Part shown: piece by piece, positions 769 through 32,030 of the stretch
Layout: each line of letters opens with the position of its first letter
How positions within the stretch are numbered: the stretch's first letter is position 1
Virus record (IMG/VR): IMGVR_UViG_2703718827_000002
Span: 1 to 50,082 of that record
Origin: a virus
Taxonomy: Duplodnaviria; Heunggongvirae; Uroviricota; Caudoviricetes
Length of the DNA stretch: 50,082 nt
Direction: 5' to 3' (one strand)
The notes under the pieces: generated by a model
What the model saw: only the letters and a program-made list of their open reading frames with translations
What the model was told of the DNA's origin: nothing
Databases searched by the model: none
Made by a program: the position numbers and the translations under genes

Positions 769-790
769 CCCGCTCCGGCGGGTTTTTTAT
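769..790 (+). terminator. Rho-independent terminator (CCCGC-TCCG-GCGGG + T6)
   Basis: Perfect 5-bp GC stem, 4-nt loop, followed by TTTTTT immediately after the stop codon at 766-768. Confidence 0.7.
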
Positions 791-929
791 CGGCCATACA
801 TAGGCAGATTTTCGAGTCTGCCCATTTATGACAACCGGCGGCCATCCACCGCCCATTGAAACACTGAATAAATGCGTTGAAGTCTTGTATTAACCGTTCC
901 GTTCGCCGCGATAAGGCCAAGAGGAAATC

Positions 930-1058
930 ATGGTAAACCAGCAGCAGATCAGAGAGGCCCAACGGCTCGCGTCGTTCGCGGTGCTCCATCGCAATGCTCC
1001 GGCGTGGGAAGAAGCAAAACGCCTTTACGCCGTCGCCATCGGGAGGACTCTTCACTGA
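930..1058 (+). CDS. Small hypothetical protein (42 aa)
   Basis: ATG with GAGGAAA RBS; stop TGA overlaps the next ATG (TGATG); below the ORF-track size cutoff. Confidence 0.4.
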   Translation: MVNQQQIREAQRLASFAVLHRNAPAWEEAKRLYAVAIGRTLH

Positions 1059-1255
1059 TGGAAACTTTATTCGCACTCGTCCTGACCGTGGCAATGACCA
1101 ACGGTGATTATCAGGATGTCATTCTCGGCGTTTACGACAGCCAGCAGGAATGCAGCCTGGCAGCTACAGAGCAGAAAGTGTCAGCTGAGTGCTGGCCGGT
1201 AGAAAGCATCATCCGCAACGGCGAGTTCCCGGCGAAATCCATCGCGCAGCAGTAA
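1058..1255 (+). CDS. Small hypothetical protein with hydrophobic N-terminus (65 aa)
   Basis: ATG at 1058 inside track ORF 1004..1255 (GTG start); GGGAGG RBS; translationally coupled to the upstream small ORF. Confidence 0.45.
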   Translation: METLFALVLTVAMTNGDYQDVILGVYDSQQECSLAATEQKVSAECWPVESIIRNGEFPAKSIAQQ

Positions 1256-1325
1256 CCACCCTATTCAACCGATCGGCCTGGCATTACGCGGGCGGGATCT
1301 GCACATCCAAATTTCAGGAGAAACC

Positions 1326-2297
1326 ATGAGCGAAGTAACGGATTTAGTCGTCATTGAGAAACAGAACGCAATGGCGGTATTCACCACCAAAGAGCAGCTC
1401 GACCCTATTATTGAGGCGATCGAGAAAGAAGCTCGCAGCCTGGTACCGGATGTGTCGACCCGCAAAGGCCGCGACGCGATCGCATCCATGGCGCATAAGG
1501 TTGCCCGCTCCAAAACCTATATCGACAACGCCGGCAAGGATCTGGTTGCCGAGCTTAAAGCCCTGCCGAAGCAGATCGACGAAAGCCGCCGCATTGTGCG
1601 TGAGAGGCTGGACGCGCTGAAGGATGAAGTACGGCGCCCACTTACCGAATGGGAAGCCGAGCAGGAACGTATTAAGGCTGAAGAAGCCATGAACGCGATG
1701 CACGCCGAAGCACTGGTGATGAACGAGAGCATCGATTTGCAGCGGGCTATTCAGTTCGAAGCGGACCACGAAATGGCTCTGCTGATGAATAAGGATTTTG
1801 ACCGGGACCGCGAAGAGCAGCGCCGCCTGGCGGAACAGGCTCAACGTGAGCATGAAGAGCGCATTAAGAGTGAAGCGGCAGAGCAAGCCCGACGCGATGC
1901 CGAAGCGAAGCACAAAGCAGAAATTGAAGCCGCAGCGCGCCGTGAAGCTGAAGAGAAAGCGCGTGCAGAGCTGGCGGAACGCCAGCGCATTGAAGCGGAA
2001 CAGCGTGCGACACGCGAGAAGAAGGAAGCAGAAGCCCGGGCGGAAAGAGAAAAAGCTGCGGCAGTGGAAGCTGAGCGCCACAAGGCAAAACAGGCCGAAG
2101 ATGCTCGCCTGGCCGAAGAGAAGCGCCTCGCCGATGAACAGGCAAAGCGCGAAGCTGACGTGAAGCACCGCAAGACGGTCGGCACCAACATCGTTAACGC
2201 GCTCACCAGCCACACCAGCTTAACCCGCGAACAGGCTATCGAAGTGCTCACCGCACTTAAAGACGACCTAATCCCCTGCGCAAAAATTCATTACTGA
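1326..2297 (+). CDS. Coiled-coil phage protein with long Glu/Arg/Ala/Lys-rich region
   Basis: AGGAGA RBS; 323 aa; central charged low-complexity segment; sits upstream of the gam/bet/exo cluster. Confidence 0.6.
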   Translation: MSEVTDLVVIEKQNAMAVFTTKEQLDPIIEAIEKEARSLVPDVSTRKGRDAIASMAHKVARSKTYIDNAGKDLVAELKALPKQIDESRRIVRERLDALKDEVRRPLTEWEAEQERIKAEEAMNAMHAEALVMNESIDLQRAIQFEADHEMALLMNKDFDRDREEQRRLAEQAQREHEERIKSEAAEQARRDAEAKHKAEIEAAARREAEEKARAELAERQRIEAEQRATREKKEAEARAEREKAAAVEAERHKAKQAEDARLAEEKRLADEQAKREADVKHRKTVGTNIVNALTSHTSLTREQAIEVLTALKDDLIPCAKIHY

Positions 2298-2304
2298 GGC
2301 AACC

Positions 2305-2589
2305 ATGAACGCATACCTCACTTACGACCGCATCGAAGATCGGCGCTGGGTTGAGCAGCAGCTCACCGACGAGAAGGAGAAGTGGATCGACGACCGGGCT
2401 CAGAAAATCATCGACATGATGCCAAAAGAGCCGTCCGGCCTCTTCCACTTCACGGTCCCGATTGACTCCAGCCCATACGAAGGACTTCGCAGCGATAAAG
2501 CTGGCGAGGCTTACAACGATTTCATTTCGGCAGTTGCTTACGCCCAAGCGGAATACGACTGGGAACACCGTACCGGCTGCCCGTTTTAA
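2305..2589 (+). CDS. Gam-like protein (possible RecBCD inhibitor), short form
   Basis: N-terminus MNAYLTYDRIEDRRW resembles lambda GamS MNAYYIQDRLEAQSW; lies immediately upstream of bet/exo; C-terminus diverges. Confidence 0.45.
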   Translation: MNAYLTYDRIEDRRWVEQQLTDEKEKWIDDRAQKIIDMMPKEPSGLFHFTVPIDSSPYEGLRSDKAGEAYNDFISAVAYAQAEYDWEHRTGCPF

Positions 2590-2607
2590 TTTTTGAGGGG
2601 ATTAACG

Positions 2608-5424: not shown

Positions 5425-5515
5425 CAACAAAATTCCCCGGGTCGCTAAGTCGGCCCTTTTTATTGCTGGCGTTCACCTTCAACCGAATTAACCGACAGTT
5501 CCGGGAGCATTGACC

Positions 5516-6619: not shown

Positions 6620-6627
6620 GGAGAACT

Positions 6628-6965: not shown

Positions 6966-7181
6966 ATGAATGACAGTATCCTGCTTACCAGTGACGTACT
7001 GGCTCGCTATAAGATTTCCCGGAGCACTCTGTATTTCTGGAGCACCCCGGAGCGAATGCCTGCTGGCTTCACCTGCCCTTTCCCCAAACCAACAATCCCC
7101 GGCAACCCAAAACGCTGGAGAGAGTCGGAGATCGTTTCGTGGGAAATGCAGGTCAACGCCTCTAAAGCTGATACCCAATAA
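6966..7181 (+). CDS. AlpA-family excisionase / phage regulatory protein
   Basis: 71 aa; LARYKISRSTLYFW helix-turn-helix typical of AlpA/Xis-like proteins; convergent with and overlapping the 3' end of the integrase. Confidence 0.6.
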   Translation: MNDSILLTSDVLARYKISRSTLYFWSTPERMPAGFTCPFPKPTIPGNPKRWRESEIVSWEMQVNASKADTQ

Positions 7182-8343
7182 TGCTCTGCAGGTGATTCTG
7201 CCAAATACCCAACCACTCGCGCTGGTCATCCATATAGTCGTGCAGGTTGTATCTGGCCATCACCCCACCCATCTGATGACCAAGCAGCTTTTCAATAACA
7301 TGCGGTGGCGCGCCAAGTTCTGACAACCTGGTTGCAACGGTGCGCCTCAGGTCATGCAGAGACCACTGTTTCATGTCTGTCTTTCTGATCACCTGCATGG
7401 AATAGGTCGAGACTAGGGCCTGAGTAGGTGGAATGTCTTCTTTATCTCGGAACTGAGCCGGTGTTAAAACGTGCTTAGTGACCGAACCTCTTTTATGCTC
7501 CTGAAGCAGCCTGATCGCCACTTCAGGCAATGCCCTCCTGATCGTCTTCCCTGTTTTGTAATCCTCAGCCGGTACCGTCCAGGTCTTTTCATTAAAGTTG
7601 TACCAGTCCCAGCGCGATTTCCTTATTTCTGCAGCCCTGCACCCAGTCAGGAGCATGAACCGTATAACAAGTTGCTGTGATGGAGGGAGCGCGAAAAGTG
7701 TATCCCAAACCACTTTGATCTCTTCGTCGGAGAGTCGCCTCTCCTTCATCTTCGCTGCAATACCAACGTCTGATCTGCGCAAGGATTCAAGCGGGTTGTT
7801 TTTAATTACCCCTCGGTTATGGCAGAACCGGAACGCGCGCTTCATTAATGACAGCATCTCACCAGTAATAACCGAACGCCCCATCTCGTCGAACACATCA
7901 AGCCAGTTAGCCTTGAACGTCTGATCAACCATCGCCCTGCCAATGCGCGGGCTAATGTGCTTCTGAAAGCTCCTGGTATTGGCATCGATTTTGATCAGAC
8001 CCTCGGGAATGCAGTAATGCTTTACCCAGTACTCATACGCCTGGTCAACCGTTAGCGCCTCTATCCTTTCTGCTTTCTCAACCAGAACCTTCTGGCGTGG
8101 ATCGTAACCCTCACTCAGCCAGGCGCGAAACTGCTGCCTGCGGTCTCTTGCCTGCGCTAATGAATAGGCTGGGTATTCACCTATACTGAGTTGCACCGGC
8201 TTACCCTGCCAGCGATAACGGTAGAAGAAAGTTACGCCACCAGTTATGCTTAACCTGACATTAAGCCCGTTTGAATCTGAGAGAACTTCCACACTCTCTC
8301 TGCGCTTACCAAGCGCCTTACGAAGTTTTGTATCTGTGAGCAT
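7162..8343 (-). CDS. int: Tyrosine integrase (P4-type)
   Basis: C-terminal catalytic region with HDLRRT...LLGH...Y; N-terminal MLTDTKLRKA typical of P4-like integrases; ATG at 8343 with AGGGG RBS (track start 8352 is GTG). Confidence 0.85.
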   Translation of the reverse strand: MLTDTKLRKALGKRRESVEVLSDSNGLNVRLSITGGVTFFYRYRWQGKPVQLSIGEYPAYSLAQARDRRQQFRAWLSEGYDPRQKVLVEKAERIEALTVDQAYEYWVKHYCIPEGLIKIDANTRSFQKHISPRIGRAMVDQTFKANWLDVFDEMGRSVITGEMLSLMKRAFRFCHNRGVIKNNPLESLRRSDVGIAAKMKERRLSDEEIKVVWDTLFALPPSQQLVIRFMLLTGCRAAEIRKSRWDWYNFNEKTWTVPAEDYKTGKTIRRALPEVAIRLLQEHKRGSVTKHVLTPAQFRDKEDIPPTQALVSTYSMQVIRKTDMKQWSLHDLRRTVATRLSELGAPPHVIEKLLGHQMGGVMARYNLHDYMDDQREWLGIWQNHLQSIIGYQL

Positions 8344-8645
8344 CGTGTACACCCCTGAGCCATGTACTCAGCAGTGTACACAAAACACGTAAATTGCAAC
8401 CATACAAAATAAAACACGTTAAAGAGTTATAAACAATGAAGTGAGTAACGGCGCGGTTTTGGCGGGAATAATTTTAAACGCAATAAAACACGATAAAGCA
8501 GAACTCGTTGAAGTATTATGCCTCAGGAAGATAAATCCTAACCAGACTGCCAGTCCTTCGGGGCTGGCGCTGTATCTCCTCTGTTCTCCTCAGGAAAATC
8601 ATAGTAGCATCGCGCCTGTGATTTTCCTTTTAAGTCGGTTTTACC

Positions 8646-9044
8646 ATGTCTACAACACATAACGTCCCTCAGGGCGATCTTGTTTTACGTACTTTAGCCA
8701 TGCCCGCCGATACCAATGCCAATGGTGACATCTTTGGTGGTTGGTTAATGTCACAAATGGATATTGGCGGCGCTATTCTGGCAAAAGAAATTGCCCACGG
8801 TCGCGTAGTGACTGTGCGGGTTGAAGGAATGACTTTCTTACGGCCGGTTGCGGTCGGCGATGTGGTGTGCTGCTATGCACGCTGTGTCCAGAAAGGGACG
8901 ACATCGGTCAGCATTAATATTGAAGTGTGGGTGAAAAAAGTAGCGTCTGAACCAATTGGGCAACGCTATAAAGCGACAGAAGCATTATTTAAGTATGTCG
9001 CGGTTGATCCTGAAGGAAAACCTCGCGCCTTACCTGTTGAGTAA
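8646..9044 (+). CDS. yciA: Acyl-CoA thioesterase YciA
   Basis: 132-aa product matches recalled E. coli YciA along its length. Confidence 0.85.
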   Translation: MSTTHNVPQGDLVLRTLAMPADTNANGDIFGGWLMSQMDIGGAILAKEIAHGRVVTVRVEGMTFLRPVAVGDVVCCYARCVQKGTTSVSINIEVWVKKVASEPIGQRYKATEALFKYVAVDPEGKPRALPVE

Positions 9045-9047
9045 TAG

Positions 9048-9080
9048 TCAAAAGCCTCCGGTCGGAGGCTTTTGACTTTC
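9048..9080. terminator. Bidirectional terminator between convergent yciA and tonB
   Basis: Long inverted repeat TCAAAAGCCTCCG / CGGAGGCTTTTGA with A/T runs on both sides. Confidence 0.7.
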
Positions 9081-9083
9081 TGC

Positions 9084-9803
9084 TTACTGAATTTCGGTGG
9101 TGCCGTTAATTTTAAACAGGATATTCACCACAATCCCACTGCCTGGCTTACCCGGCTCATAACGCCATCTGCGCATCGCATTTTTCACCTCACGCTCAAA
9201 CATGTTCGCAGGCTTGGCTGAGAGGATTTGTACGTTATCCACGCGACCATCCGGCGTAACGTCAAATTTAACTTTAACCTGCCCTTCAATGCGCAATGCC
9301 TGTGCTCGTGCCGGATACTGCGGCTGATTACGGCTTAATGCGCGTGGTCCTGAAGCCACACTGGTAACCGGCTTGCTGGTTGCAGCCGTTGCTGTACTTG
9401 ATGTCAGGCGTGCCGGTGCCGTATTTTCAAACGGTGATGCCGGACGCGACTCTACGGGTTTGACATCGCGTTTTGGCTGCTCCTGTACCTTTTTCACCGG
9501 CTTCGGTTTTGGCTTAGGTTTCGGCTTCGGCTTTTCAATGACCACCGGTGCTTCTTTTGGCGGTTCGGGGATCGGCTCAGGTTCCGGTTCTGGCTCTACC
9601 ACCGGCTCCGGTGGCGGCTGAACGGCTTGTGGCGGTTCGAGATCAGCAGGCGTAACCATCGTGACAGAAATCGGCTGCGCAGGCGCAGGTAGTTCAATAA
9701 CCTGATGTACCGAGGTATAGAGCAGACCCGCCACAACAGCACCATGAATGCAGACCGAAAGTAACGTCGGCCAGGGGAAGCGGCGAGGTAAATCAAGGGT
9801 CAT
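9084..9803 (-). CDS. tonB: TonB energy-transducing protein
   Basis: MTLDLPRRFPWPTLLSV..., (EP)n and (KP)n repeats, C-terminal domain; 239 aa from ATG at 9803 (track ORF extends upstream to 9854). Confidence 0.9.
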   Translation of the reverse strand: MTLDLPRRFPWPTLLSVCIHGAVVAGLLYTSVHQVIELPAPAQPISVTMVTPADLEPPQAVQPPPEPVVEPEPEPEPIPEPPKEAPVVIEKPKPKPKPKPKPVKKVQEQPKRDVKPVESRPASPFENTAPARLTSSTATAATSKPVTSVASGPRALSRNQPQYPARAQALRIEGQVKVKFDVTPDGRVDNVQILSAKPANMFEREVKNAMRRWRYEPGKPGSGIVVNILFKINGTTEIQ

Positions 9804-10026
9804 TGAAGTCATAATCATTTCAGTAGAAAAACCAGGTCTCGATTTTAAATGCAAATAGCAATCATATTCAATAAGGCAAGACGATCAGGATCAGTGAAAA
9901 TGTCATTTTTGGCGTAATTACCCTTACTTTATGCATGGCCTTAACAAAGACATCATCTTTCCGTTGCAGATCTTCGCCCTTTCAAATAACGTACTTTACA
10001 ACTTTCCCGAACAAGGAGTTGTGCCC

Positions 10027-10323
10027 GTGTTGTATGTTATTTACGCTCAAGACAAAGCTGATAGCCTCGAAAAACGCCTTTCCGTTCGTCCGGCACATTT
10101 AGCACGTTTACAGTTACTGCATGATGAAGGTCGTTTGTTGACAGCTGGTCCAATGCCAGCGGTAGACAGTAACGATCCAGGGGCTGCGGGATTTACTGGC
10201 TCAACCGTTATTGCTGAATTTGAATCGCTGGAAGCAGCTCAGGCCTGGGCCGATGCTGACCCGTACGTAGCGGCAGGAGTCTATGAACACGTTTCAGTGA
10301 AACCATTTAAGAAAGTGTTCTAA
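10027..10323 (+). CDS. yciI: YciI-like protein
   Basis: 98-aa product from GTG start matching the recalled yciI neighbour of tonB; track ORF 9931..10323 extends upstream. Confidence 0.7.
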
Positions 10324-10387
10324 TTTATTAGAAATTTGCACTTAAATCAAAAAGTTACGGACAATTCAACCACCAATCAATAAATTA

Positions 10388-10430
10388 AAGGGCACATTAA
10401 AGTACACAATATTTGTGCCCTTCTCTGTTT
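10388..10430. terminator. Hairpin between yciI and the invertase gene (possible bidirectional terminator)
   Basis: AAGGGCACA ... TGTGCCCTT inverted repeat with T-rich flanks; loop is long, so weaker. Confidence 0.35.
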
Positions 10431-10441
10431 CTTTCCCGTTA

Positions 10442-10990
10442 TCAGCTAGCTGGAAACTTTTTATACAGAGTTGAGAGCCCTACTCCATACGTTTTTGATA
10501 CGCTTTGTCGTGATTCACCGGTTGCCATCCGCTCCCCCATTTCCCGCCATTGCTCATCCGTGAACTTAGGCCTGCGACCACCAACTCGCCCTTTTGCCCT
10601 GGCTACGGCCAGCCCTGCTAAGGTACGTTCGCTATTAAGATCAGATTCATATTGTGCTGCGGAAAGGATGTTACGAAAGTTATAGCGGCCGCTGGCTGTT
10701 TTGAGATCCACGCCATCGGTAATACTGCGGAAGTTGATACCCTTTTCCTGTAACTGCTGGAACATCAACAGCGCATGCAGAACGTTGCGGCCTATCCTGT
10801 CCAGCTTCCAGACCACCAGTTCATCCCCCGGCTGCATAGTGGCGATCAGCCGTTTTAGAACCGGCCGATTCGATTTCCTCCCGCTGGCATGCTCTTCAAA
10901 AATTTTCTCACAACCCGCTGACTTGAGCGCCGTTAGTTGCAATTCAGTGTCCTGGTGGTTTGTTGATACTCGGGCATAACCGTAAATCAT
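10442..10990 (-). CDS. Serine recombinase, Hin/Gin/Pin-type DNA invertase
   Basis: MIYGYARVSTNHQD...VVWKLDRIGR...C-terminal HTH GLSTLYKK; 182 aa; typical resolvase/invertase catalytic domain. Confidence 0.85.
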   Translation of the reverse strand: MIYGYARVSTNHQDTELQLTALKSAGCEKIFEEHASGRKSNRPVLKRLIATMQPGDELVVWKLDRIGRNVLHALLMFQQLQEKGINFRSITDGVDLKTASGRYNFRNILSAAQYESDLNSERTLAGLAVARAKGRVGGRRPKFTDEQWREMGERMATGESRQSVSKTYGVGLSTLYKKFPAS

Positions 10991-11194
10991 GAGTGCTTCT
11001 CCTGTTGTAAAAACAGGAGAAGAGGCGAAATATCACCTGATTCAGAAAAATATTTGAAAGGTTGGTTTGGGAGAAGCGGCAAAACGGGATGTGGGAACAG
11101 GGGAAAATCAGATACCGGATATGGCTTTTTTTGCCAGTGGTGATGGATGGATGAAATTACCCAACGGTAAAATCCTGCAATATGGTCGAGGTGC

Positions 11195-11418
11195 GGTTAC
11201 GCCGCCGAGGTATCGATACAATTGTGTTATGTGGGATCTCGACCAATATCGGTGTTGAATCCACCGCCCGCAATGCCTGGGAACTTGGCTTTAATCTGGT
11301 GATTGCCGAAGACGCCTGTAGTGCCGCCAGCGCCGAGCAACACAATAACAGCATTAATCATATCTACCCGCGCATCGCCCGTGTGCGTAGCGTGGAAGAG
11401 ATCCTTCACGCGTTATGA
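11195..11418 (+). pseudogene. yecD: 3' fragment of isochorismatase-family gene yecD
   Basis: Only the C-terminal ~75 codons ([18 protein letters not shown]...RVRSVEEIL) are present; the upstream in-frame sequence is unrelated; stop overlaps the yecE start. Confidence 0.6.
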
Positions 11419-11520
11419 TTTACATCGGTCTGCCGCAATGGTCGCATCCTAAATGGGTGCGGTTGGGGATCACCAGCCTTGAAGAGTATGCCCGTCACTT
11501 TAACTGCGTGACGCGGGCAT
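11415..11520 (+). pseudogene. yecE: 5' fragment of yecE, truncated at a prophage junction
   Basis: [32 protein letters not shown] matches the recalled YecE N-terminus for about 35 codons, then diverges into AT-rich phage-end sequence. Confidence 0.6.
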
Positions 11521-11638
11521 TTTAAAAATCACTAAAGAACGCCCAAGAGCATGTGTTTTCTTTAGTTTATTCAATGCATTAAAAAATAGTTTCGCATGAA
11601 ATTCGGTAAACTTCATGTGTGCAATAATGTCCCATTCA

Positions 11639-11690
11639 TGCCCCAAAATGCCCCAAAGCAGACATTTTTGCCCCAAGTATGCCCCACAAG
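11639..11690. repeat. Four direct TGCCCCA(A/C)A repeats with helical phasing
   Basis: Copies start at 11639, 11649, 11669 and 11680 (spacings 10, 20, 11 bp), about 120 bp inside the yecE junction. Confidence 0.6.
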
Positions 11691-12490: not shown

Positions 12491-12784
12491 TTAAAGGGCG
12501 GCGACAAAATACACGGCGGTGCAGGCCAGAACCGGAACGAGCCAGTCCAGCAGGCTGGGCAGATTCCATACGCGCAAGGAGAACCCGCCCCACCACGGCA
12601 TATTGGCCCGTTTTCCGCCGCCGAACTGTGCGATCCAGCGATACTCTGCCTGGGTGTGCTCGCGGGCTATAAACCACATGCAGCCTATCGCGCCGCCAGC
12701 ACCCCACATCCCAGAAACCAGTCCGACAGCGCATTGAAGGGTTACGGCTATGGCAGCGTGTACAAACGGAGAAAAATCAGCCAT
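12491..12784 (-). CDS. Small membrane protein (97 aa)
   Basis: ATG at 12784 overlaps the tailspike stop; hydrophobic segments with Gly/Trp-rich motif. Confidence 0.45.
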   Translation of the reverse strand: MADFSPFVHAAIAVTLQCAVGLVSGMWGAGGAIGCMWFIAREHTQAEYRWIAQFGGGKRANMPWWGGFSLRVWNLPSLLDWLVPVLACTAVYFVAAL

Positions 12785-18188: not shown

Positions 18189-18250
18189 CTTTTCATGTTG
18201 ATGCGTTTCCAGCGGTTCGCCCGGCAACCGGGATGGATAGATTCGGATCG

Positions 18251-18637
18251 TCACTGGTAATACTCCACACGGACAAAGCGGCGCGCAAACCGCGCCAGCG
18301 GCAGAAAAGTTACGTTGGTGCGGGGATTGCACTCTGCGGCACGCAGCTGGCCGTCAATCTCGACCACGATGGCAACGTGTGTCACCACTGAACCGGAATA
18401 ACAGGCGATACCCGCGCCCGGGACCGGTTCACATCGAGCCAGGCCAGCCATCAACCCCCGCGCCTCGCGGTCAAGTCCGTTATCATCCTTCGTGACTCCG
18501 GCGAAATCCGGCCACGGCACCAGGCCAAGATCGCGCCTGATTTCGTTAACGATGCCAAAGCAGTCCAGCGCGGGGTAAGCGCGTCCGCCCTTCTGCCACT
18601 CGACAGAACGGTATTTATCAGGATTGAACATGGTCAT
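18251..18637 (-). CDS. NlpC/P60-family tail assembly protein (gpK-like)
   Basis: DCFGIV catalytic-Cys motif and THVAIVV His motif; position between minor tail genes and J. Confidence 0.6.
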   Translation of the reverse strand: MTMFNPDKYRSVEWQKGGRAYPALDCFGIVNEIRRDLGLVPWPDFAGVTKDDNGLDREARGLMAGLARCEPVPGAGIACYSGSVVTHVAIVVEIDGQLRAAECNPRTNVTFLPLARFARRFVRVEYYQ

Positions 18638-19605: not shown

Positions 19606-22600
19606 TTATGTGAGGCGTTGACTGGTGTTGAAGTTGTTGGTCAGTGCGTTGGAGAGTTTTCCTTTGCCGCTGGCGACGTCACTGACAGCCATGGCATAGC
19701 CCTGCTGCGCCCCGCGCTTGACTGCGGCCTCGAGCATGGCCAACTGCTGCTCAGTCGGATCCCCGTTAACCTGAATGACCGGGCTGTAACTGAACGCCCC
19801 GCCACCACCGCCCATATCGCGGTTACTGATGACGCGACCGTTATCGCCGGGGATCATGTACTGCTTGCCGGTGCTGGCCTGGTAAATCTCTGGCTTACCT
19901 TTCTCGCCGACCTGATACAGGCCACCGGCTGATACCGGTCCGCCATTGTACCGCGCTCCCGCTATTGAAAGGGCCTGCGCCATGCCAACTGTTGAAGCTA
20001 TTCCCGCCTGTGCCGGCACTGCATTCGCGCCAGCAGTTGCAAGAGATGTCATTGCGGCTGCAGGGGCCATGGAAGCGGCGATTAGCTGCCCTTGCGCAAT
20101 AGCCATTCCAGAAGCGGCGGTCATGCCAGCCTGACCCATAATTACAGACTTCAACCACTCAACCCCCATCTGAACAAAGGAGTTGATGACGCTGTTAAGT
20201 ACCGTCGAGCCTAGCGACCGCATAGCTTCGCTGACAGACATGCTGCCAGTGATTATGCCAGTGAGGGCGTTGGAGGCGTTTCCAGCAAATGAATCAAACG
20301 CCGCGGCAGCTACTTCATATCCTGCATTTTGTTGTCGCCATATCTCCCACTGCGCCGCTATGCGCTGTTGCTCGTACTGAGTGTTAGCGGCATTCATCAG
20401 CTCAAGTCCGCGCTGAGTAATCTGCCCCTTCTGCGATTCAAACTGCTGGATTAGAGCCAACTCCTGCGCGTGCTGGTTAGCCAGCTGTTGGACAGGGTCA
20501 ATCTGCCCCCGAGCTTCCTGCATGGGGCTTACAGTTTGCTGAGCGCGTATCTTAGCCAGATTAACCTGGTGCTGAGCCTCCAGTTGCTCACTGGTCTGAT
20601 TGTACTGCTGCTGAGTGATTTTTTTGGCGGCCAGTGCAGTTTGCAGATCTTTAACATCCTGCTGGTAAGACGCATTCTCTCTGGCTTCAGGGAGCAGTTT
20701 TTCTGCCGCAGCCTGGGCTTTGAGGGCATTAGCCGTATCCCATATTTCTCCACGGTATTTACCGGCAAGAGCAATTTGCTCTTGGGTGGCTCCCTTACCT
20801 AGTGATTGCTGAGCCTGTAATACTGCCTGCTCCCGGCTTAACTCCTGCGTTGAGCCAGCAGCGAGCTCTGATTGCTGGCGCAGATTTTCAAGTTTTTGGT
20901 TTACCGATTCCTGCTGGTTAGCAAGTTTCTTAGCCTCAGATTCCGCTTCCTTGGTGGCCTTTTTGTTATTTTGCTGCGCTTGTTGAGCATCGAATTCAGC
21001 TGCTGCTCTGTCACGAGCAAGGTTAACATCCGCCTCTGATCCACCGAGTTTCCTAATGTCCTGCTCAGCCCTTAATTGCGCTCGCTTCCTGTCATTAAGC
21101 TCGCTCTGAAGTGTTACCTGATCCTGTAGCTTATCCAGATACTCCTGAACATCTTTCGGGCGTTCAATCATGAGGCTGCTGGAGTTGAATTTGTCTTTTG
21201 CCTTGGCCGCAAAATTAATCATATCTCCCAACTTGCTCATCATGCCGGCAGCAATTCCCGCTTCCTGCCCATCCCTGCGCAGCAAATCGATACCTTGCTT
21301 CATCGTTCCGTTTAGCGTAGCGCGGCCAATGTTAATGGCGTTTTGGGTCTGACTCAGTCTGTTCTGGGCCTTCTCCAGCTCAAGGGTAGCTATAGCTAGG
21401 TTATCCTGTGCGCCGCTAAGCGCCTCGGCAGCCTGCCGCCCTCTCGTTGTATTCGTACCCCAGTTTGCAATTTCTCGCTGCTGTCGCTGGACAGCCGATG
21501 TCGCGTCATTGAATTCCTTTTGTGCGTCTGATACCGCGTCACTTAATTCAGGCAGGCTTTGGCTTAGCTTTCCTATCGTTGCCGCCAGCTCTGTATGCGA
21601 CATCGTCTGGAATTTTGAGCTCAGATCGTTAACGCTATCTGCAAGGGCATTAGCGTCATTCCTGGCCTCTTTTGCGCGCTGTGAAAAGTAAAGGATTGCA
21701 CTAGCAGCAAGCATTGCCGCTCCGGCAGGCCCACCAATTAACCCGAGAGCCCTGCTAGCCAGGCTGGCACCAGATGAGAGAGCCATTTGAGCAGCCCTGT
21801 TTGCCGCCAGTGCTCGATTATAATTATCAACCGCACCGGCAGCCGCAACCCTGGCAACGGACAAGCGCTGTTCAGCTGCCGCAGCGTTGGTTTCGCTGAT
21901 AGCAGTAAGGCGCATCATTTCTGCGAGCCTTATCTCATCTAAGGCCCGTTGTTTTGCGACCGCTGCAGCCCTGAGGTCTGCCGCTGCTTTATTCGCGGAA
22001 GCCTGAGCTGCTAATGATTCTTCTGCTGAAAGCATGCGTGATGCGGCAGCTGCTTTGATTTTAGCCGCAGTAGCCATAGTTAAGGCGCCGACATACCGAC
22101 TCCCAAGAATAGCCGCGGCACCAGTCAGCAACGCGCTCAGTCCGCCAATATTCTCACTGATGGTGACCACTGCATCACTAAAAATTGCCGCGCCTGTTTT
22201 AACCGTAGAATTTTCACCGAAGAACTTAGTGATGTTATTGCCAGCAACCTGAAGAGCCTGGCTGATAGTCGTAGTGGTGTTGGCAAATTCAGCACCGATT
22301 AAACTCCCCTGGGAAAGCAGACCGTTAACCACAACATCTGTCGTTAGCTTGCCCTGTGCCGCCATGTTGCGCATCTGGCCGATGCTGACCCCCATAGAGT
22401 CAGCAAGGGCTACGATAAGGCGGTTACCCTGCTCGTTTACAGAGTTGAATTCCTCGCCGCGTAAAGCTCCAGAAGCAAGGCCCTGAGATAGCTGAATAAT
22501 CGCGTTCTCGGCCTCTTGCGCCGTGGCACCTGATACAACGAACCCTTGGTTTATAATTGTGGTTAACTTCGCCAGATCATCTGCGCTGGTCCCGTACTGC

Positions 22601-22980
22601 CTGGTTGCCCTTTCTAGTCTTGCGTAGAGGGATGCCGTTGCATCTAAACTACTGCGAGTTTGCTGAGTAATGTTGAAAACCCGCTCGGTTACATCGGCAA
22701 GTTGTTCTGATGGGCGAATAGAGTTTGATAATTTATTGTTAACAGTAGCCCACGCATCAGCGTATTCAGCCACCTGCTGAACTGACAATGCCGCGGTGAG
22801 CGCAACCGCTACACGTGACAGACTCGACATTGAACGCTCAGTAGTATCAATTGAGCGCGTTGTTTTATCAAAGCCGCGCTCCATCAGATCAAGGCGCTGA
22901 TTAACGCGCTGCTGAGCAGTAAGTAGCCCGCGCACATCCATTTCAATGTCGTAATAAATACCGCCAGCGTTCTCAGCCAT
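19606..22980 (-). CDS. Tail tape measure protein
   Basis: 1124 aa, Ala/Gln-rich coiled-coil-like composition, Gly-rich C-terminal region, position between chaperone and tail tip genes. Confidence 0.85.
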   Translation of the reverse strand: MAENAGGIYYDIEMDVRGLLTAQQRVNQRLDLMERGFDKTTRSIDTTERSMSSLSRVAVALTAALSVQQVAEYADAWATVNNKLSNSIRPSEQLADVTERVFNITQQTRSSLDATASLYARLERATRQYGTSADDLAKLTTIINQGFVVSGATAQEAENAIIQLSQGLASGALRGEEFNSVNEQGNRLIVALADSMGVSIGQMRNMAAQGKLTTDVVVNGLLSQGSLIGAEFANTTTTISQALQVAGNNITKFFGENSTVKTGAAIFSDAVVTISENIGGLSALLTGAAAILGSRYVGALTMATAAKIKAAAASRMLSAEESLAAQASANKAAADLRAAAVAKQRALDEIRLAEMMRLTAISETNAAAAEQRLSVARVAAAGAVDNYNRALAANRAAQMALSSGASLASRALGLIGGPAGAAMLAASAILYFSQRAKEARNDANALADSVNDLSSKFQTMSHTELAATIGKLSQSLPELSDAVSDAQKEFNDATSAVQRQQREIANWGTNTTRGRQAAEALSGAQDNLAIATLELEKAQNRLSQTQNAINIGRATLNGTMKQGIDLLRRDGQEAGIAAGMMSKLGDMINFAAKAKDKFNSSSLMIERPKDVQEYLDKLQDQVTLQSELNDRKRAQLRAEQDIRKLGGSEADVNLARDRAAAEFDAQQAQQNNKKATKEAESEAKKLANQQESVNQKLENLRQQSELAAGSTQELSREQAVLQAQQSLGKGATQEQIALAGKYRGEIWDTANALKAQAAAEKLLPEARENASYQQDVKDLQTALAAKKITQQQYNQTSEQLEAQHQVNLAKIRAQQTVSPMQEARGQIDPVQQLANQHAQELALIQQFESQKGQITQRGLELMNAANTQYEQQRIAAQWEIWRQQNAGYEVAAAAFDSFAGNASNALTGIITGSMSVSEAMRSLGSTVLNSVINSFVQMGVEWLKSVIMGQAGMTAASGMAIAQGQLIAASMAPAAAMTSLATAGANAVPAQAGIASTVGMAQALSIAGARYNGGPVSAGGLYQVGEKGKPEIYQASTGKQYMIPGDNGRVISNRDMGGGGGAFSYSPVIQVNGDPTEQQLAMLEAAVKRGAQQGYAMAVSDVASGKGKLSNALTNNFNTSQRLT

Positions 22981-22995
22981 TTGCTATCTCCGGGC

Positions 22996-23039: not shown

Positions 23040-23420
23040 TTAGTTTAGGAGGCCTGATTTAACTTCTGTATTTGAATTATTAAATAAGTAATTATCTACA
23101 ATATCGCCCTTAAACACGATTATAAGCTGCTTCATGTTGGTAGTAGCGCCGTTATCAAATAGTCCATAGATGGGAATAAATGCTTTCCCGCTGACCTGTG
23201 TGTTTGTGAAAACATAGTGCCACTGTTCTTTCCCATCACTGGAGATTGATACCCCAGTTGGATCTCCATATGCAGCCTTAACCTCTTGCTTCGTCGTCTT
23301 TCCTTTGATTATTTTACTCTGAATGCCAATCTGCGTTTCTTGCTCAATCGACTTATTGCCGCCAGAAGCACAACCGGCAAGTACAACCGCTATTGCTGCA
23401 ACCAATAGAACCTTTTTCAT
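23040..23420 (-). CDS. Lipoprotein with BamE (SmpA/OmlA)-like fold signature
   Basis: MKKVLLVAAIAVVLAGC lipobox; KQEVKAAYGDP...EQWHYVF resembles the BamE motif; ATG 23420 with GGGGA RBS (track start 23480). Confidence 0.6.
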   Translation of the reverse strand: MKKVLLVAAIAVVLAGCASGGNKSIEQETQIGIQSKIIKGKTTKQEVKAAYGDPTGVSISSDGKEQWHYVFTNTQVSGKAFIPIYGLFDNGATTNMKQLIIVFKGDIVDNYLFNNSNTEVKSGLLN

Positions 23421-23560: not shown

Positions 23561-24034
23561 ATGGATAAGTTTGACCGTAAACTTCAGCGAGAAATACTAC
23601 AGGCTTGCGTAGATAGCTATCCAGCCGCACCTCTTCTCGAACAATTTAACCTTACGGAAGTAGCAGAATGTGCAGAAAGCAACATTCAGAAGCTATTAGC
23701 TAACATAAATTACCTGTGCGAACACGGACTAATTAAAAATAACAGCTCCATTATTCTTAAGGACCGCTCCATCCTCACCCGGATCACCGCAACAGCAAAA
23801 GGCATCGACTTCATGCTCAATGATGGTGGTCTATCAGCGATCCTGAACGTCCAGACTATAAAGCTTCATCGTGACTCAGTGGTCGTACTCGAAGACCTGA
23901 TCGCCATTTCAAACATGAACGACGAGCAGAAGGAAAAAGCCAAGTCGACTCTCGGCGAAATGTCGACGGAAGCCATTAAAACCGTGGTGCAAGCCGTGAC
24001 GACTGCAGGGTTATCAAAGCTGCTCGGGCAATGA
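23561..24034 (+). CDS. Hypothetical protein (157 aa), opposite strand to the late operon
   Basis: AAGGAA RBS; divergent from the lipoprotein gene, convergent with the Panacea operon; no family recognised. Confidence 0.5.
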   Translation: MDKFDRKLQREILQACVDSYPAAPLLEQFNLTEVAECAESNIQKLLANINYLCEHGLIKNNSSIILKDRSILTRITATAKGIDFMLNDGGLSAILNVQTIKLHRDSVVVLEDLIAISNMNDEQKEKAKSTLGEMSTEAIKTVVQAVTTAGLSKLLGQ

Positions 24035-24050: not shown

Positions 24051-24078
24051 AAAAAAACCACCAACGGTGGGTTTTTGC
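24051..24078. terminator. Bidirectional rho-independent terminator
   Basis: AAAAAAACCACC-AACG-GTGGGTTTTT between convergent genes. Confidence 0.7.
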
Positions 24079-24531
24079 TTAGGTTCCTGTCAATCCATCA
24101 TCTGGCTCAGGCTGATCAATTAACTGAGCATTGGTGCAGTATCTTTCTTTGAACCTTATCATCTTCGGTTTTGCTTGTTCCGAAATGTCAAAACCAGACA
24201 GAATTCTGTCAAAAACAGCTTCAGCCATATCGTCATGAGTCGTAACTTCGCCAGCTGCGTGTTTTCTTTCTAAATTATCAATGCGCCAAATTACAGCTTC
24301 AGCATAAACGATATAGCTTGGATGTTGGATAAACCTGTGATCACCAGGTTGGAGAACACATGCGTCATCATGCGGCACGCCAGGCTTAATGCTTGACACA
24401 TTAACAACCAATATACAGTAACAGTCGTTAACTGGATAATAAACAGGATCGTTGCATATCACATGAAGATGATTGCATGGCCCACTTGGAGCCAAAACCG
24501 TTCCTTTTCGATAAGGTTGAAATGTGCTCAT
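24079..24531 (-). CDS. Hypothetical protein (150 aa), candidate effector/toxin partner of the Panacea gene
   Basis: ATG overlaps the Panacea stop (ATGA coupling); no family recognised; several Cys/His residues. Confidence 0.5.
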   Translation of the reverse strand: MSTFQPYRKGTVLAPSGPCNHLHVICNDPVYYPVNDCYCILVVNVSSIKPGVPHDDACVLQPGDHRFIQHPSYIVYAEAVIWRIDNLERKHAAGEVTTHDDMAEAVFDRILSGFDISEQAKPKMIRFKERYCTNAQLIDQPEPDDGLTGT

Positions 24532-25410: not shown

Positions 25411-26109
25411 CTATCTCTCCTGCTCCATCATCGCCTGTCTGCGCTTACGGCGCGTAAAGTAGTCATCAGCTGCGTGATCGTACTCTTCGCGGGTGTACCC
25501 TTTCTGCTCAGGGTACTTAGCGATGAGCATTAGCTGAAACTCGGTCATCGTCAGTTGTCCGGCCTCTTCCTTGCTGATACCGAAGTGGTTCCGCGCTGCG
25601 ATGATGTAATCTGATGCCCGGAATTCAGATGTTGTATCACTGGATTCGTGCCGCTGGAGCTTTCTAATTTTCGCTTTACCGATGATGCCGTGCATCATCA
25701 GACTTTTGGCGACGATCACCATGCTTTCTGGCGGCATGGTGCCCGGGCGCCAGACGAAGCTACGCTTGCGTGATTTCCCGGGCTTCATCCAGCCAACCAG
25801 ATCGCCGATATCATCGTTACAGCACGCCGTAAGCACCGTATGCGCTGCCATGATGGCCTTGCGTGACAGGAGCCCGCTTTGCATAAACCTCAGGACACAA
25901 TCTGGAAAGCGGCTGTACTCATCGCGTATATAGGCCTCAGCTGCACGCTGTGCGAATGGTGTCGTCTCGTCATTGCACAGGTCATAGAACGCCTGAACGA
26001 TTTCAGCCGGATCGCCAATTCGCGACATGGCAAGCAGTGACGGGCGGAAGAAATAATCCCTGTCTCCGGCAGTAATGACGCATTCGCCAAACTCTTTAAC
26101 TGGTGTCAT
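25411..26109 (-). CDS. Putative tail assembly chaperone (G/GT position)
   Basis: Position between major tail and tape measure; N-terminal GDRDYFFRP resembles chaperone motif; single 232-aa ORF with no visible frameshift partner. Confidence 0.45.
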   Translation of the reverse strand: MTPVKEFGECVITAGDRDYFFRPSLLAMSRIGDPAEIVQAFYDLCNDETTPFAQRAAEAYIRDEYSRFPDCVLRFMQSGLLSRKAIMAAHTVLTACCNDDIGDLVGWMKPGKSRKRSFVWRPGTMPPESMVIVAKSLMMHGIIGKAKIRKLQRHESSDTTSEFRASDYIIAARNHFGISKEEAGQLTMTEFQLMLIAKYPEQKGYTREEYDHAADDYFTRRKRRQAMMEQER

Positions 26110-26159
26110 CTTTCCCCCATAAACAAAATCAAGGGCAGAAATCCTGCCCTTTGTTTTGC

Positions 26160-26912
26160 TTATGCTGTAACCGTTACCGTGTGAGTTGCGGTAAATGCGC
26201 CGTCGTCAGTAGTTACAGTGATCACCGCGGTGCCTGCAGTAGCGCCAGAAGGGGCGGATACTGTTACCGTATTACCTGAGAAGGCCACCGTAGCGCGCGC
26301 AGGCACGGAAGACGAAACAGTAAATACCTTGTCGTCCGCATCTGCTGGCGCAATGTTCACAGTGAAGGTTGTGCTTGAACCTGCCGCAATCGTGCTGGTT
26401 GTTGGCGTTACGGTCACGCCTGTAACGGGAATGCCATCATCAGCTTCAGTAATCTGGAAGGTGTTACCGTCAGCCAGTTTGAACTCAAAGCTGTATGTCA
26501 CGATCTCCTTCACACCACCGCCATCACTGGCGCCGGTCGGGACCATGTAGCCAATGTGGTAAAAGTCACCCCAATGGAAGCGCATCCAGACAGCAGGTTG
26601 ACGGCGGGCGCGAACTTCATCAGCGATATATTTCACGAATTGCTGAATGCCGAATTCATCAGTTCGGTCTTTAACTCGCACCTCTCCCTCAATGGAATAG
26701 GTGGGATCAAGACTGGCAATCAGGTTAGAACTGAATCCGCCGTTATCCGCATCTGATGTCAGCGCTTCGGGGCTCATATCCCAGGTTGCCGAAGTCGGCA
26801 GCCCCATAAGCTTCCAGTCCCCTTCTGCCGGAACCTGGTCAGCACATCCATACGCTAGCTCAAGCGTCTTAGCGCGACCGATAAGTTGTTCGTTATTGGA
26901 GCAGCCTTGCAT
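26160..26912 (-). CDS. Major tail protein with C-terminal Ig-like (Big_2-type) domain
   Basis: C-terminal Thr/Val/Ala-rich beta-sandwich-like segment typical of Ig-like decoration on major tail proteins; position. Confidence 0.7.
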   Translation of the reverse strand: MQGCSNNEQLIGRAKTLELAYGCADQVPAEGDWKLMGLPTSATWDMSPEALTSDADNGGFSSNLIASLDPTYSIEGEVRVKDRTDEFGIQQFVKYIADEVRARRQPAVWMRFHWGDFYHIGYMVPTGASDGGGVKEIVTYSFEFKLADGNTFQITEADDGIPVTGVTVTPTTSTIAAGSSTTFTVNIAPADADDKVFTVSSSVPARATVAFSGNTVTVSAPSGATAGTAVITVTTDDGAFTATHTVTVTA

Positions 26913-27762: not shown

Positions 27763-27764
27763 AC

Positions 27765-28665: not shown

Positions 28666-28667
28666 GG

Positions 28668-29033: not shown

Positions 29034-29042
29034 GATTTATCC

Positions 29043-30140: not shown

Positions 30141-30150
30141 TCAGTGCTCC

Positions 30151-30585
30151 TTATTTGAACACAACGCGAATCAGATCGCCCGCCACCGCAGTGACTGCTT
30201 TATCTTCTTCGACATAAGCGAATACGGCGACATCATCTACAACCGCAGTGATCTGACCGTTGGCTACTGCAACCGGCTGGCCTTTGGTGTAAGTGCCCGC
30301 TGCTGCTCGCACATTTAGGAACATGCCAGGCAGCGGATGAATACCAACAACCAATTCATTGGCTGGGATTGCGTCATCAACACTCAGGCAGCGCAGGTAG
30401 TCTTTGTTTGCCACATACTTGATGGCGGATTCTGCCCCGACCACAGAGGCCGTGAACTTGTCAGCAGTACTGAAGAAGCCAACAGTACCAGGCAGAGTCG
30501 ATGCAGCCGCCCCGCCTTCGCGGTTAAGCAGCGGATTAGGGAACACGCCGCCGGCGTGGATAATATGCTTTCCGTCTTTAGCCAT
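30151..30585 (-). CDS. Head decoration-like protein (144 aa)
   Basis: Size and position between scaffold/protease and capsid gene; GGAG RBS. Confidence 0.45.
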   Translation of the reverse strand: MAKDGKHIIHAGGVFPNPLLNREGGAAASTLPGTVGFFSTADKFTASVVGAESAIKYVANKDYLRCLSVDDAIPANELVVGIHPLPGMFLNVRAAAGTYTKGQPVAVANGQITAVVDDVAVFAYVEEDKAVTAVAGDLIRVVFK

Positions 30586-30588
30586 TTT

Positions 30589-31977
30589 TTACTCCGGCAT
30601 TTCGCTGACTGATTGGGTGTTGGTTGCCTGATGGCGGAATGCACCGTTCAGGCCGAAAGATGTCTGGCACTTGGCGTACATGGCGTCGAGCGCCTTACCG
30701 TCCAGATCCGCGACTTCGTCGTCGCTCATGTTCATCGCCAGCTTCACAGCCGCGCGCTTTTCGCCTTTCTCTTTATCGGCGTTAGCGCTCAGGCTGTTGA
30801 AAACGACGTCCACGCGATCGGCGAGTTTCTGCGCCCACGCTGGCATCTCTTCGTTATTGGCGGCCTGCTCTTTTTTCTTGGGCTTGCCGGTTTCCGGGTC
30901 GATTTCTTCATCGCCTTTTTTCTTGGCGGTGGCTTCTTCGGCCTTCATCTGGTTGTATGCGTCCATCAGCTCGGCGTCGGACTTGCCTTCAGTCGGCTTA
31001 CCAGCGGCTTGCAGCGCATTGATAATCAGTTCTTTCATCGGATCGTTCTCTCCGTTGGTTTTAATCTCGTACTCAGTGGGTTTGCGCACGACTTCTACAG
31101 GTTCGCCGACGAACACGGCCTTGCCGTCATCATCGATGAGGTACTTCTGTTTCAGGTATTTGGTGTCATTGCGGTAGATGAAGCTGTCCGGCCACACCGT
31201 TTCAGGCCAAAGCCACTTATCTTCGGTGTCACCCTCGCGCAGCTTGTCGCTGATAGCGCGGGAGATATCGTCGAAAGAGAAATTAGAGGCATTGGTGAAG
31301 AAGAATTTGGTCTTGTTGAGCAGGCCGTCTCGGGTACAGTCGATGCCATCAGCCAGACGGGCAACTTCAATCTGCTGCTCATCACCTTCAGAGTTAACGA
31401 AGATGCCCACGCCATCCTCCGGCGTACCCGCGCCAGGCTCATCGAGCAGCACCGCCACATGGTCAAACATCATGTTGGTGGCGATCTCGTTGTACTTCTT
31501 GCCCTTCGACTCACCATTGGCGGCGATGCCGGAATACAGCAGACCGGTTGAGATGTGGATCGGGTCGGAGTTGGTACCAGCCAACATCTCATCCAGACGG
31601 TTAATCAGGCGCTTGCCCTTGTCGCTGGATTCGGCGTACTGGCGGTTAACGTACATATCGCCCGTCACTTTCCCGTCTTTGTGGCTGACGTTCTGCAGCC
31701 ATGCCCCGACGTGATACTCATTCACCGCCCGGACATCGCGCGCCGAAACATGCTTGCCGTCCACTTTCGGATGGCCCAGCGGCATCGGGTTGCGCTCGAG
31801 TGTGTTGTAGGCCTTTTCGATTTCGGCTGCCGGGTACAACTTCCGGTTCATCACAATATCGTCCACGACAGGCGTGATGCCGCGAACCACGATATGTGGC
31901 TTGCCGTCGATGGTTTCAGTGGTGATGTTTGAAGCGGAGTTGACGACGGTCAGCACGTTAACGCGGTTGCGTTTCAT
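30589..31977 (-). CDS. Prohead protease / scaffolding protein
   Basis: 462 aa; charged Lys/Glu-rich C-terminal half typical of scaffold domains; position after MuF-like gene. Confidence 0.45.
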   Translation of the reverse strand: MKRNRVNVLTVVNSASNITTETIDGKPHIVVRGITPVVDDIVMNRKLYPAAEIEKAYNTLERNPMPLGHPKVDGKHVSARDVRAVNEYHVGAWLQNVSHKDGKVTGDMYVNRQYAESSDKGKRLINRLDEMLAGTNSDPIHISTGLLYSGIAANGESKGKKYNEIATNMMFDHVAVLLDEPGAGTPEDGVGIFVNSEGDEQQIEVARLADGIDCTRDGLLNKTKFFFTNASNFSFDDISRAISDKLREGDTEDKWLWPETVWPDSFIYRNDTKYLKQKYLIDDDGKAVFVGEPVEVVRKPTEYEIKTNGENDPMKELIINALQAAGKPTEGKSDAELMDAYNQMKAEEATAKKKGDEEIDPETGKPKKKEQAANNEEMPAWAQKLADRVDVVFNSLSANADKEKGEKRAAVKLAMNMSDDEVADLDGKALDAMYAKCQTSFGLNGAFRHQATNTQSVSEMPE

Positions 31978-32004
31978 GCTGGGTCCTCGTTATTGGATAT
32001 CTGG

Positions 32005-32030
32005 CAATAAAAAAGGCCGCCGTAGCGACC
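32005..32030 (-). terminator. Terminator-like hairpin plus T-run after the inserted membrane-protein gene
   Basis: On - strand: GGTCGC-TACG-GCGGCC followed by TTTTTTATTGCC; same family as the 15128 and 22996 elements. Confidence 0.5.

Follow-up and report, generated by a model that had tools for sequence, protein, structure and literature searches.

The window analysed here, the whole 50,082-nucleotide (nt) stretch at positions 1 to 50,082 of IMG/VR record IMGVR_UViG_2703718827_000002, is a lambdoid prophage region of Escherichia coli. Between its genes lie four short GC-rich hairpins, each followed by a run of T, which we call S1 to S4. S1 belongs to the early-left operon, and the other three follow one another as S4, S3 and S2 along the late operon, 3' of a gene for a Q-type antiterminator. 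We argue below that they are very probably intrinsic terminators that form part of how accessory genes (morons) are built into a lambdoid prophage of the Enterobacterales. The elements and the genes next to them are as follows.

767-788 (to 790 with the tail), plus strand: S1, GACCCGC-TCCG-GCGGGTT and T6, reading on as -TTTTAT
12777-15113, minus strand: tailspike gene
15150-15129, minus strand: S2, ACCCGC-TTCG-GCGGGT and T7; with the tail, TTTTTTATGCCCGGAG, to 15119
15171-18332, minus strand: TipJ-like tail-tip gene
19606-22980, minus strand: tape-measure gene, ATG at 22980
23021-22999, minus strand: S3, ACCTCGC-TCCG-GCGGGGT and T6; with the tail, TTTTTATTGCCCGGAG, to 22988
25411-26109, minus strand: DUF6246 tail-chaperone gene
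30589-31977, minus strand: DUF2213 gene, ATG at 31977
32032-32009, minus strand: S4, AAGGTCGC-TACG-GCGGCCTT and T6; with the tail, TTTTATTGCCAGATA, to 32000
32602-33606, minus strand: minor head protein gene
39680-40180, minus strand: Q-type antiterminator gene (PF06530, E 2.7e-21)

Anatomy of the four elements

The four hairpins share GC-rich stems of 6-9 bp, a tetraloop of the YNMG/UNCG class closed by a C-G pair, and a following T6-7, with energies of -10.4 to -14.1 kcal/mol (-12.7 for S1). A terminator scan of the window picked up all of them, at the places and on the strands given by an earlier note on this DNA, and all are co-oriented with the surrounding genes. They stand close to gene ends: the upstream stop codon is 21 nt from S2, 19 nt from S3 and 14 nt from S4, and the stem of S1 overlaps the TGA stop of an Nmad5-family accessory gene. 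Each of the three late-operon copies is followed, after 6-31 nt, by the ribosome-binding site of a virion gene (that for the tailspike, the tape measure or the DUF2213 head protein). S3 is followed by ATTGCCCGGAGA and the tape-measure ATG, and S4 by ATTGCCAGATATCC...GAGG and the ATG of the DUF2213 gene. In an Rfam search of the whole window at the gathering threshold, a tRNA was the sole match and no known RNA element covered S1-S4. By their sequence S1-S4 are ordinary Rho-independent terminators, with termination itself a prediction.

The earlier note described the copies as near-identical with shared flanks. This is true of the inner stem, the loop and the T-run, but not of what lies beyond: in anchored pairwise comparisons 3-8 of 12 nt are alike on the 5' side, and 13-17 of 23 over the 3' arm and tail. 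The core pattern CGCNNCGGCGGNNTTTTT matches S1-S4 and nothing else when no mismatch is allowed; with up to two mismatches it is found five times against 0.72 expected, and no shuffle reached five. An extended motif had also been attributed to three of the copies. As written, with one N between A6 and CCGCCG, it matches neither S3 nor S4, but in a form with two Ns (GGCAATAAAAAANNCCGCCGNAGCG) it fits both exactly and S2 with two mismatches, where 0.00 matches are expected by chance. The stem bases of S3 and S4 differ by a compensatory swap (CC..GG for GG..CC), and both stems contain a T.G wobble.

The position of S2 affects the annotation of the tailspike. The spacer from the tail-tip gene to the tailspike open reading frame (ORF), as listed by the ORF tool, is 42 nt, and the ATG chosen by that tool (15128-15126) falls inside the terminator tail. 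A Shine-Dalgarno (SD) sequence, GGAG, lies at 15122-15119 on the minus strand, with an ATG at 15113-15111, 5 nt after it. This GGAG-CGAGC-ATG arrangement is kept in 75 relatives, which is why the tailspike likely starts at 15113. Around the same site, the pairing of the SD region (CCGGAG) with the loop side of the hairpin (CUCCGG) is the minimum-free-energy structure of S2 in a 46-nt fold. A regulatory switch built on this pairing was considered and rejected, because the loop sequence and the presence of CCGGAG are uncoupled in relatives and do not co-vary.

Cargo slots and their conservation

The earlier note placed each copy at a module boundary or right after an inserted gene. S1, S3 and S4 do follow genes that are variable or absent in relatives (hereafter cargo). 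S2 follows no inserted gene, although it does mark a boundary, the one at which the conserved tail-tip gene gives way to the variable tailspike gene. The cargo features are these.

100-768, plus strand: Nmad5-family accessory gene, GC 0.45 against 0.56 downstream; other genes replace it in relatives
23040-23420, minus strand: BamE-like lipoprotein accessory gene, GC 0.40
23561-24034, plus strand: ORF of 157 aa, opposite in strand to its neighbours and bounded by a small bidirectional hairpin at 24058-24070
24079-24531, minus strand: ORF of 150 aa
24528-25112, minus strand: gene for a SocA/Panacea-domain protein
32047-32562, minus strand: accessory gene of 171 aa, function unassigned, GC 0.40 against 0.56-0.58 in the flanks
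32623-32596, minus strand: candidate sigma-70 promoter of the 171-aa gene, TTGGAA, 16 nt, TG-TATCAT (a consensus match with an extended -10)

S3 ends a 2.4-kb accessory island that reaches up to 25410 and fills the slot between the tail chaperone and the tape measure. The same slot held the first moron to be described, gene 15 of HK97 (PMC3594210). Within the island, the SocA/Panacea-domain gene followed by the 150-aa ORF could form a toxin-antitoxin pair, and the candidate promoter 5' of the BamE-like gene is a weak match only. A PADLOC search of the cargo genes of the window gave no match, nor did a Pfam search with the 171-aa protein. In E. coli strain 53 (L005) only 17 nt separate the head genes that flank the S4 slot, which lacks both cargo and terminator there. 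In the early-left operon, one relative (L490) has a different first gene abutting the S1 terminator, with the breakpoint at the stop codon, and two others (L491, L492) have a different first gene and then a different terminator. Overall, cargo has a GC content of 0.40-0.45, against 0.53-0.58 in the flanks. S1, S3 and S4 with their cargo thus appear to have the properties expected of morons, that is, patchy distribution, deviant GC and a terminator of their own, with promoter activity in the lysogen as a candidate only. S2, with no cargo, has no gene that could be absent where its flanks are adjacent.

A megablast against the phage collection with the tail region as query gave no matches, and relatives were instead located in E. 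coli genomes and IMG/VR with a distant search. For each late-operon slot we fetched 80 viral-contig loci by protein homology, hence unselected for the presence of a terminator. At the tape-measure slot about 76 of the 80 have one, and in about 70 it is of the S3 type (ACCTCGC...GCGGGGT-T6ATTGCC(C/T)GGAG), including single-base derivatives, among them one in which the T.G wobble is repaired to T-A (GCGAGG). The distance from chaperone to tape measure varies there from 15 to 3336 nt, the upstream flanks fall into 36 clusters, and four loci (L002, L382, L387, L389) have little or no cargo. The slot between the tail tip and the tailspike has a terminator in 75 of 79 relatives, of the form ACCCGC-(TTCG, TACG, CTCG...)-GCGGGT-T6-7-ATGCCCGGAGCGAGCATG. 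At the DUF2213 slot the frequency is about 50 of 78, with gaps of 125-1154 nt and 26 clusters of upstream flanks. The stems at this slot are mostly GGTCGC...GCGGCC, some being ACCCGC...GCGGGT, GACCCAGC...GCTGGGTT or AAGCCGC...GCGGCTT, and nearly all are followed by T5-6ATTGCCTGAAATCC. The window and one relative (L010) have homologous cargo at this slot and compensated stems. The earlier note had proposed a search of other lambdoid genomes for the motif at mosaic junctions; in most relatives the same terminator types are present at the same slots. Among 120 viral-contig matches to TCGC-NNNG-GCGG-NN-T6ATTGCC, the unconstrained prefix and the stem base are complementary in every one (CC/GG, GG/CC, GC/GC), and we conclude that selection maintains the structure of these hairpins, which are inherited at their slots.

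The elements also recur outside their usual slots. The tape-measure slot of E. coli A14 carries ACCCGCTTCGGCGGGTTTTTTTATGTCCGGAG, identical at 31 of 32 nt to S2 of the window, including the tail past the T-run, and E. coli M10 has the hairpin of S1 after a Lit gene, in the S4 slot. The same cargo with different hairpins and different cargo with the same hairpin are both seen in relatives. The BamE-like gene and S3 occur together at 99% identity in a prophage of a different structural type, with baseplate and DUF3383 genes (L001); there the homology stops directly past ATTGCC and gives way to AGATA, the bases found after S4. An exact pattern for S3 plus the SD sequence (30 specified bases) is present in 30 species-representative genomes (L494-L523) from about 20 genera of Enterobacterales, including Enterobacter, Klebsiella, Citrobacter, Pectobacterium, Pantoea, Hafnia, Mixta and Dryocola; these distant cases were picked by the pattern itself, and no frequency follows from them. 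The element precedes at least four gene families, including the tape measure, a tail-fibre family with the motif 'MLYNTGTIA' and small genes of 66-122 aa. Beside tape-measure genes whose products share only 17-71% aa identity with that of the window, its 33 nt are 30-33/33 identical, and the 60 nt upstream are unrelated.

Two observations concern the DUF2213 slot in particular. In other E. coli (L007, L011 and others) the cargo between the minor head and DUF2213 genes includes a Lit-family exclusion protein, a Rap1a/Tai immunity protein (in reverse orientation) and other small genes, and on account of the Lit and Rap1a/Tai genes the slot seems to be a hotspot of defence and competition functions. 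When loci of this slot with the same cargo and stem are compared (within L250-L329; for example L297, L298, L301, L314 and L326), differences per site amount to 0.144 in the tetraloop and 0.02-0.026 in the 40-nt flanks, and one cluster has TATG, TTTG, CACG and CAAG. The excess, in a small sample of 30 differences, is confined to this slot and absent from the tape-measure and tailspike slots. Hypermutability of the loop or patch exchange between terminators could account for it.

The four copies of the earlier note are not the full set, as at least four weaker or variant members of the family are also present in the window.

26958-26920, minus strand: GTTCGC-CTGGA-GCGGCC, T6ATTATC, -5.9 kcal/mol, before the Ig-like major tail protein gene (26160-26912, minus strand)
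5439-5466, plus strand: GGGTCG-CTAAGT-CGGCCC, T5ATTGC, in the early-left operon
39618-39586, minus strand: the stem of S3 with a 6-nt loop, following Q
49918-49944, plus strand: following cI (49105-49899, plus strand)

The first has one stem mismatch in the window and is intact in E. coli strain 53; the last two have unchanged family stems and 6-nt loops, CATCG(T/C). In the leader between Q and the lysis genes, a tRNA-Thr (anticodon TGT; 39587-39512, minus strand) is flanked by strong terminators at 39618-39597 and 39457-39441, and in other viral contigs a terminator tail of the T6ATTGCC type leads straight into the 5' end of a tRNA.

Proposed function and competing explanations

We propose that the late-operon copies insulate virion genes from the transcription of cargo. 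In a lysogen, the terminators would stop transcripts that start at cargo promoters or leak from upstream, and the virion genes would stay silent while cargo is expressed. Upon induction, RNA polymerase modified by Q at the late promoter would pass S4, S3 and S2, and the whole late operon would be transcribed. The Q gene is upstream of these three copies and co-oriented with them, and strain 53 is annotated with Q at the equivalent place. The stretch from Q to the lysis genes has a late promoter-like site (39689-39662, minus strand), followed by the two leader terminators already described; a qut site and a Q-loading pause were not identified from the sequence at the Q leader. The earlier suggestion that the terminators are read through by Q antitermination is thus plausible for S4, S3 and S2, but it does not extend to S1. 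This copy is on the opposite strand, in the early-left operon, and Q cannot account for passage through it. S1 would do the same job there, where polymerase needs some other way past it, perhaps leakiness of the terminator or a different antitermination device.

Several points weigh against this proposal, at least as a complete account. Termination and read-through are both deduced from the sequence and from the established biology of lambda and HK97. Promoter-like sites in the window are no more numerous than in shuffles, and the promoter calls are weak consensus matches. For S1, a search between cI and the Nmad5 gene in a fuller relative (L012) gave no convincing ORF for an N-like antiterminator, and Rfam has no known RNA element at this site. 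S2 is conserved without cargo, and one relative (L002) keeps the S3 element with no cargo beside it, so insulation cannot be the whole function. Finally, the 33-nt S3 element is more strictly conserved than termination by itself would obviously require. The elements may in addition attenuate low-copy virion genes or protect the 3' ends of mRNA.

Why should the copies resemble each other? The best explanation, we think, is the very narrow repertoire of compact and efficient hairpins in the phage lineage and its host, with an inner CGC/GCG, a stable tetraloop and T6-7AT(T)G. As the terminators stay in fixed slots and the cargo upstream is exchanged, the same terminator comes to lie beside many genes. 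The earlier idea of a reused boundary element is sustained to the extent that the elements recur at the same and at heterologous slots beside dozens of cargo ends, but not for the hairpin of S1 and S2, which is generic.

Much of the similarity among S1-S4 is indeed generic, and a stronger version of this view is a tentative possibility: independent terminators may have converged on an optimal compact design, with no shared ancestry and no role at boundaries, lying at gene ends as any terminator does. A 39-nt query with S2 has matches in all 5426 complete E. coli genomes (5426/5426), at a median of five places per genome. What these matches have in common is an exact run of 25 nt, ACCCGCTTCGGCGGGTTTTTTTATG, which forms the terminator after the housekeeping gene rpoC; S2 is identical to it in hairpin, T-run and ATG, and S1 differs from it by one loop base and one T. 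The hairpin CCGCTNCGGCGGGTTTTTTNAT has at least 120 exact matches in IMG/VR, in contigs with GC of 0.30-0.65 and with unrelated flanks. Identity in hairpin and T-run is hence no sign that any of the four copies arose from another. Most loops at the slots are of the stable YNMG/UNCG class (our tetraloop census, which reached only stems of 5-7 bp, the CCCGC class, was not used as a census), and the window copies match poorly beyond stem, loop and T-run. The t_oop terminator of lambda also ends in T6ATTG. Yet at one slot, in about 70 of 80 relatives, S3-type elements share a non-optimal T.G wobble and an ATTGCC(C/T)GGAG tail, with single-base derivatives, which indicates descent. The S2 element in the tape-measure slot of A14, tail included, and the T6ATTGCCAGATA shared by L001 and S4 also speak against pure convergence.

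A second alternative, which we find rather doubtful, gives the elements a part in the exchange itself. Cassettes of terminator plus ribosome-binding site would serve as boundary sequences for the swapping of cargo at fixed slots by homologous or microhomology recombination, in analogy to the PeSL elements of T4-like phages (PMC4122927) and in line with the boundary-sequence hypothesis cited in PMC3029335. In BLAST comparisons with other E. coli prophages, homology starts or stops in the terminators or at their edges, at 22993 (H29-H32), 22949/22976-23021 (H33-H38), 32027 (H47-H48) and 768 (H87-H88). However, BLAST matches are expected to end where cargo ends in any case, and similar terminators lengthen alignments artificially. 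Many different cargo flanks abut the same element (the 36 and 26 clusters above), hairpins and cargo are combined in both ways, and in L001 the homology with the BamE-like gene and S3 breaks right after ATTGCC, but crossovers in the conserved genes on either side would leave the same pattern. The 33-nt element itself is kept at 30-33/33 in the 30 species-representative genomes, where the flanks share about 45% and 49-65% DNA identity, although those matches were ascertained through the exact pattern. The cargo of the window is not bounded by two cassettes, and a length of about 30 nt is short for recombination of the RecA type, although Bet/Exo-type functions are encoded in relatives. On balance, it seems somewhat unlikely that the cassette of about 33 nt, (A/G)ACCTCGC-YNMG-GCGGGGT-T6-ATTGCC(C/T)GGAG with its GG..CC and CCCGC sister forms, is a portable linker that defines the cargo slots (between chaperone and tape measure, and between minor head and DUF2213) and is kept near-identical, beyond the needs of termination, among the temperate phages of numerous Enterobacterales genera.

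The elements could also be tuners of expression, either partly active in lytic growth, where they would lower the amounts of low-copy proteins such as tape measure and tailspike, or acting as 3' hairpins that stabilise processed mRNA. Conservation where there is no gene to insulate, at S2 and at S3 in L002, fits this idea. The three late-operon copies are directly 5' of genes whose products are presumably low-copy in the virion, and about 80% (by eye) of the viral-contig matches listed for CCGCTNCGGCGGGTTTTTTNAT have an SD sequence and a start codon within about 5-25 nt, often as GCC(C/T)GGAG. On the other hand, the weaker copy at 26958-26920 is 5' of the gene for the high-copy major tail protein, and the lambda polymerase modified by Q is highly resistant to terminators, which counts against tuning. 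We consider this explanation, argued from sequence, unlikely. Lastly, a small mobile repeat that resembles a terminator, such as a repetitive extragenic palindrome or interspersed mosaic element (REP/BIME) or a miniature inverted-repeat transposable element (MITE), would account for many near-identical 25-35-nt copies across genomes, but there are no terminal inverted repeats past the hairpin, no target-site duplications and no match to an Rfam repeat family, and the constant orientation with transcription and position between a stop codon and the next ribosome-binding site led us to reject it as highly improbable.

Window context, related systems and implications

The remaining genes of the window place the four terminators within the prophage.

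Minus strand: cro-like, YdaT, replication and nin genes
Minus strand, 3' of Q: lysis, terminase and portal genes
Minus strand: capsid gene
Plus strand, at the window start: early-left operon, with Nmad5, DUF1482 and then, in relatives, gam/bet/exo
7162-8352: integrase gene

The stretch at 8518-11648, which separates the integrase from the tailspike end of the late operon, is host DNA: an ordinary piece of the E. coli chromosome with yciA, tonB, yciI, a gene for a pin-like recombinase and one of the isochorismatase family. In E. coli L73 the end of the window maps to 5396 and its start to 6001, in a single contiguous prophage. Two arrangements would fit. The window may be a circular or tandem unit of about 50.7 kb, host DNA included, of which nearly one repeat length is seen, or it may hold two related prophages on either side of the tonB region. 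With two prophages, S1 would lie in one and S2-S4 in the other, with the chromosomal DNA between them. The strongest hairpin of the window (9046-9077, 14 bp, -23.5 kcal/mol) has an A-tract on one side and a T-tract on the other, and as yciA and tonB converge on it, it is positioned to terminate in both directions; being host DNA, it was excluded from the phage family. Positions 49990-50082, 3' of cI and its terminator, contain repeated TTTAGCA / ACGCTAAA motifs, which look like left-operator repressor sites beside an early-left promoter.

Among known systems, the morons of HK97 and HK022, promoter-gene-terminator units between late genes, are close to what we describe: a gene of deviant GC separates two virion genes that adjoin each other in relatives, and a factor-independent terminator comes after it (PMC3594210). 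Unlike them, the terminator of the tape-measure slot persists without cargo in L002, as S2 does, and the terminator is constant while the cargo changes, which makes it as much a part of the backbone as of the moron. The rpoBC operon terminator of E. coli shares 25 identical nt with S2, but it ends a chromosomal operon, has unrelated flanks and is not directly followed by the ribosome-binding site of a co-transcribed gene. The lambda Q system (pR', qut, tR') is matched by the Q-family gene, the promoter-like site, the strong terminators before the lysis and virion genes, and the presence of downstream terminators to override. It differs in that the window has a tRNA gene between the two leader terminators, and S1 outside the operon.

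Two further systems concern exchange. PeSL elements of T4-like phages are composites of an early promoter and a stem-loop terminator, repeated in the genome at the edges of indels and replacements, and they mediate modular shuffling (PMC4122927). The elements described here likewise border indels and replacements when close relatives are compared. However, their conserved unit is hairpin, T-run and SD sequence, with unrelated sequences upstream and no conserved promoter; they belong to temperate lambdoid phages, bound the cargo on one side only, and have at most a hypothetical role in exchange. As the defining promoter is absent, they are not members of the PeSL family. Short boundary sequences have also been proposed for mosaic genomes, in the modular theory of Susskind and Botstein and by Clark et al. 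on HK620, as summarised in PMC3029335. A conserved sequence of about 30 nt at junctions of unrelated or diverged modules fits this proposal, although by the same summary that literature reports such sequences to be absent from most junctions. Since our element has an obvious function of its own, its conservation need not mean a role in recombination. The literature that we searched gave no earlier account of this cassette, or of conserved terminators at the cargo slots of lambdoid phages, which is no proof of absence.

The terminator type is shared with hundreds of related phages and with the rpoC gene of the host. The arrangement is largely expected and of a known, textbook kind: accessory genes of a late operon are closed by terminators that the Q-modified polymerase overrides. 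Its use for annotation is direct, as the terminators mark the 3' edges of cargo slots that in relatives hold defence and conversion genes (Lit, Rap1a/Tai, SocA/Panacea-domain and BamE-like), and a mis-called start codon of the tailspike is corrected. Should the linker role be true, the elements would be the lambdoid counterpart of the T4 PeSL. If the 33 nt were a preferred point of exchange, they would provide a concrete mechanism for the shuffling of accessory genes in enteric temperate phages, and a sequence tag for the slots.

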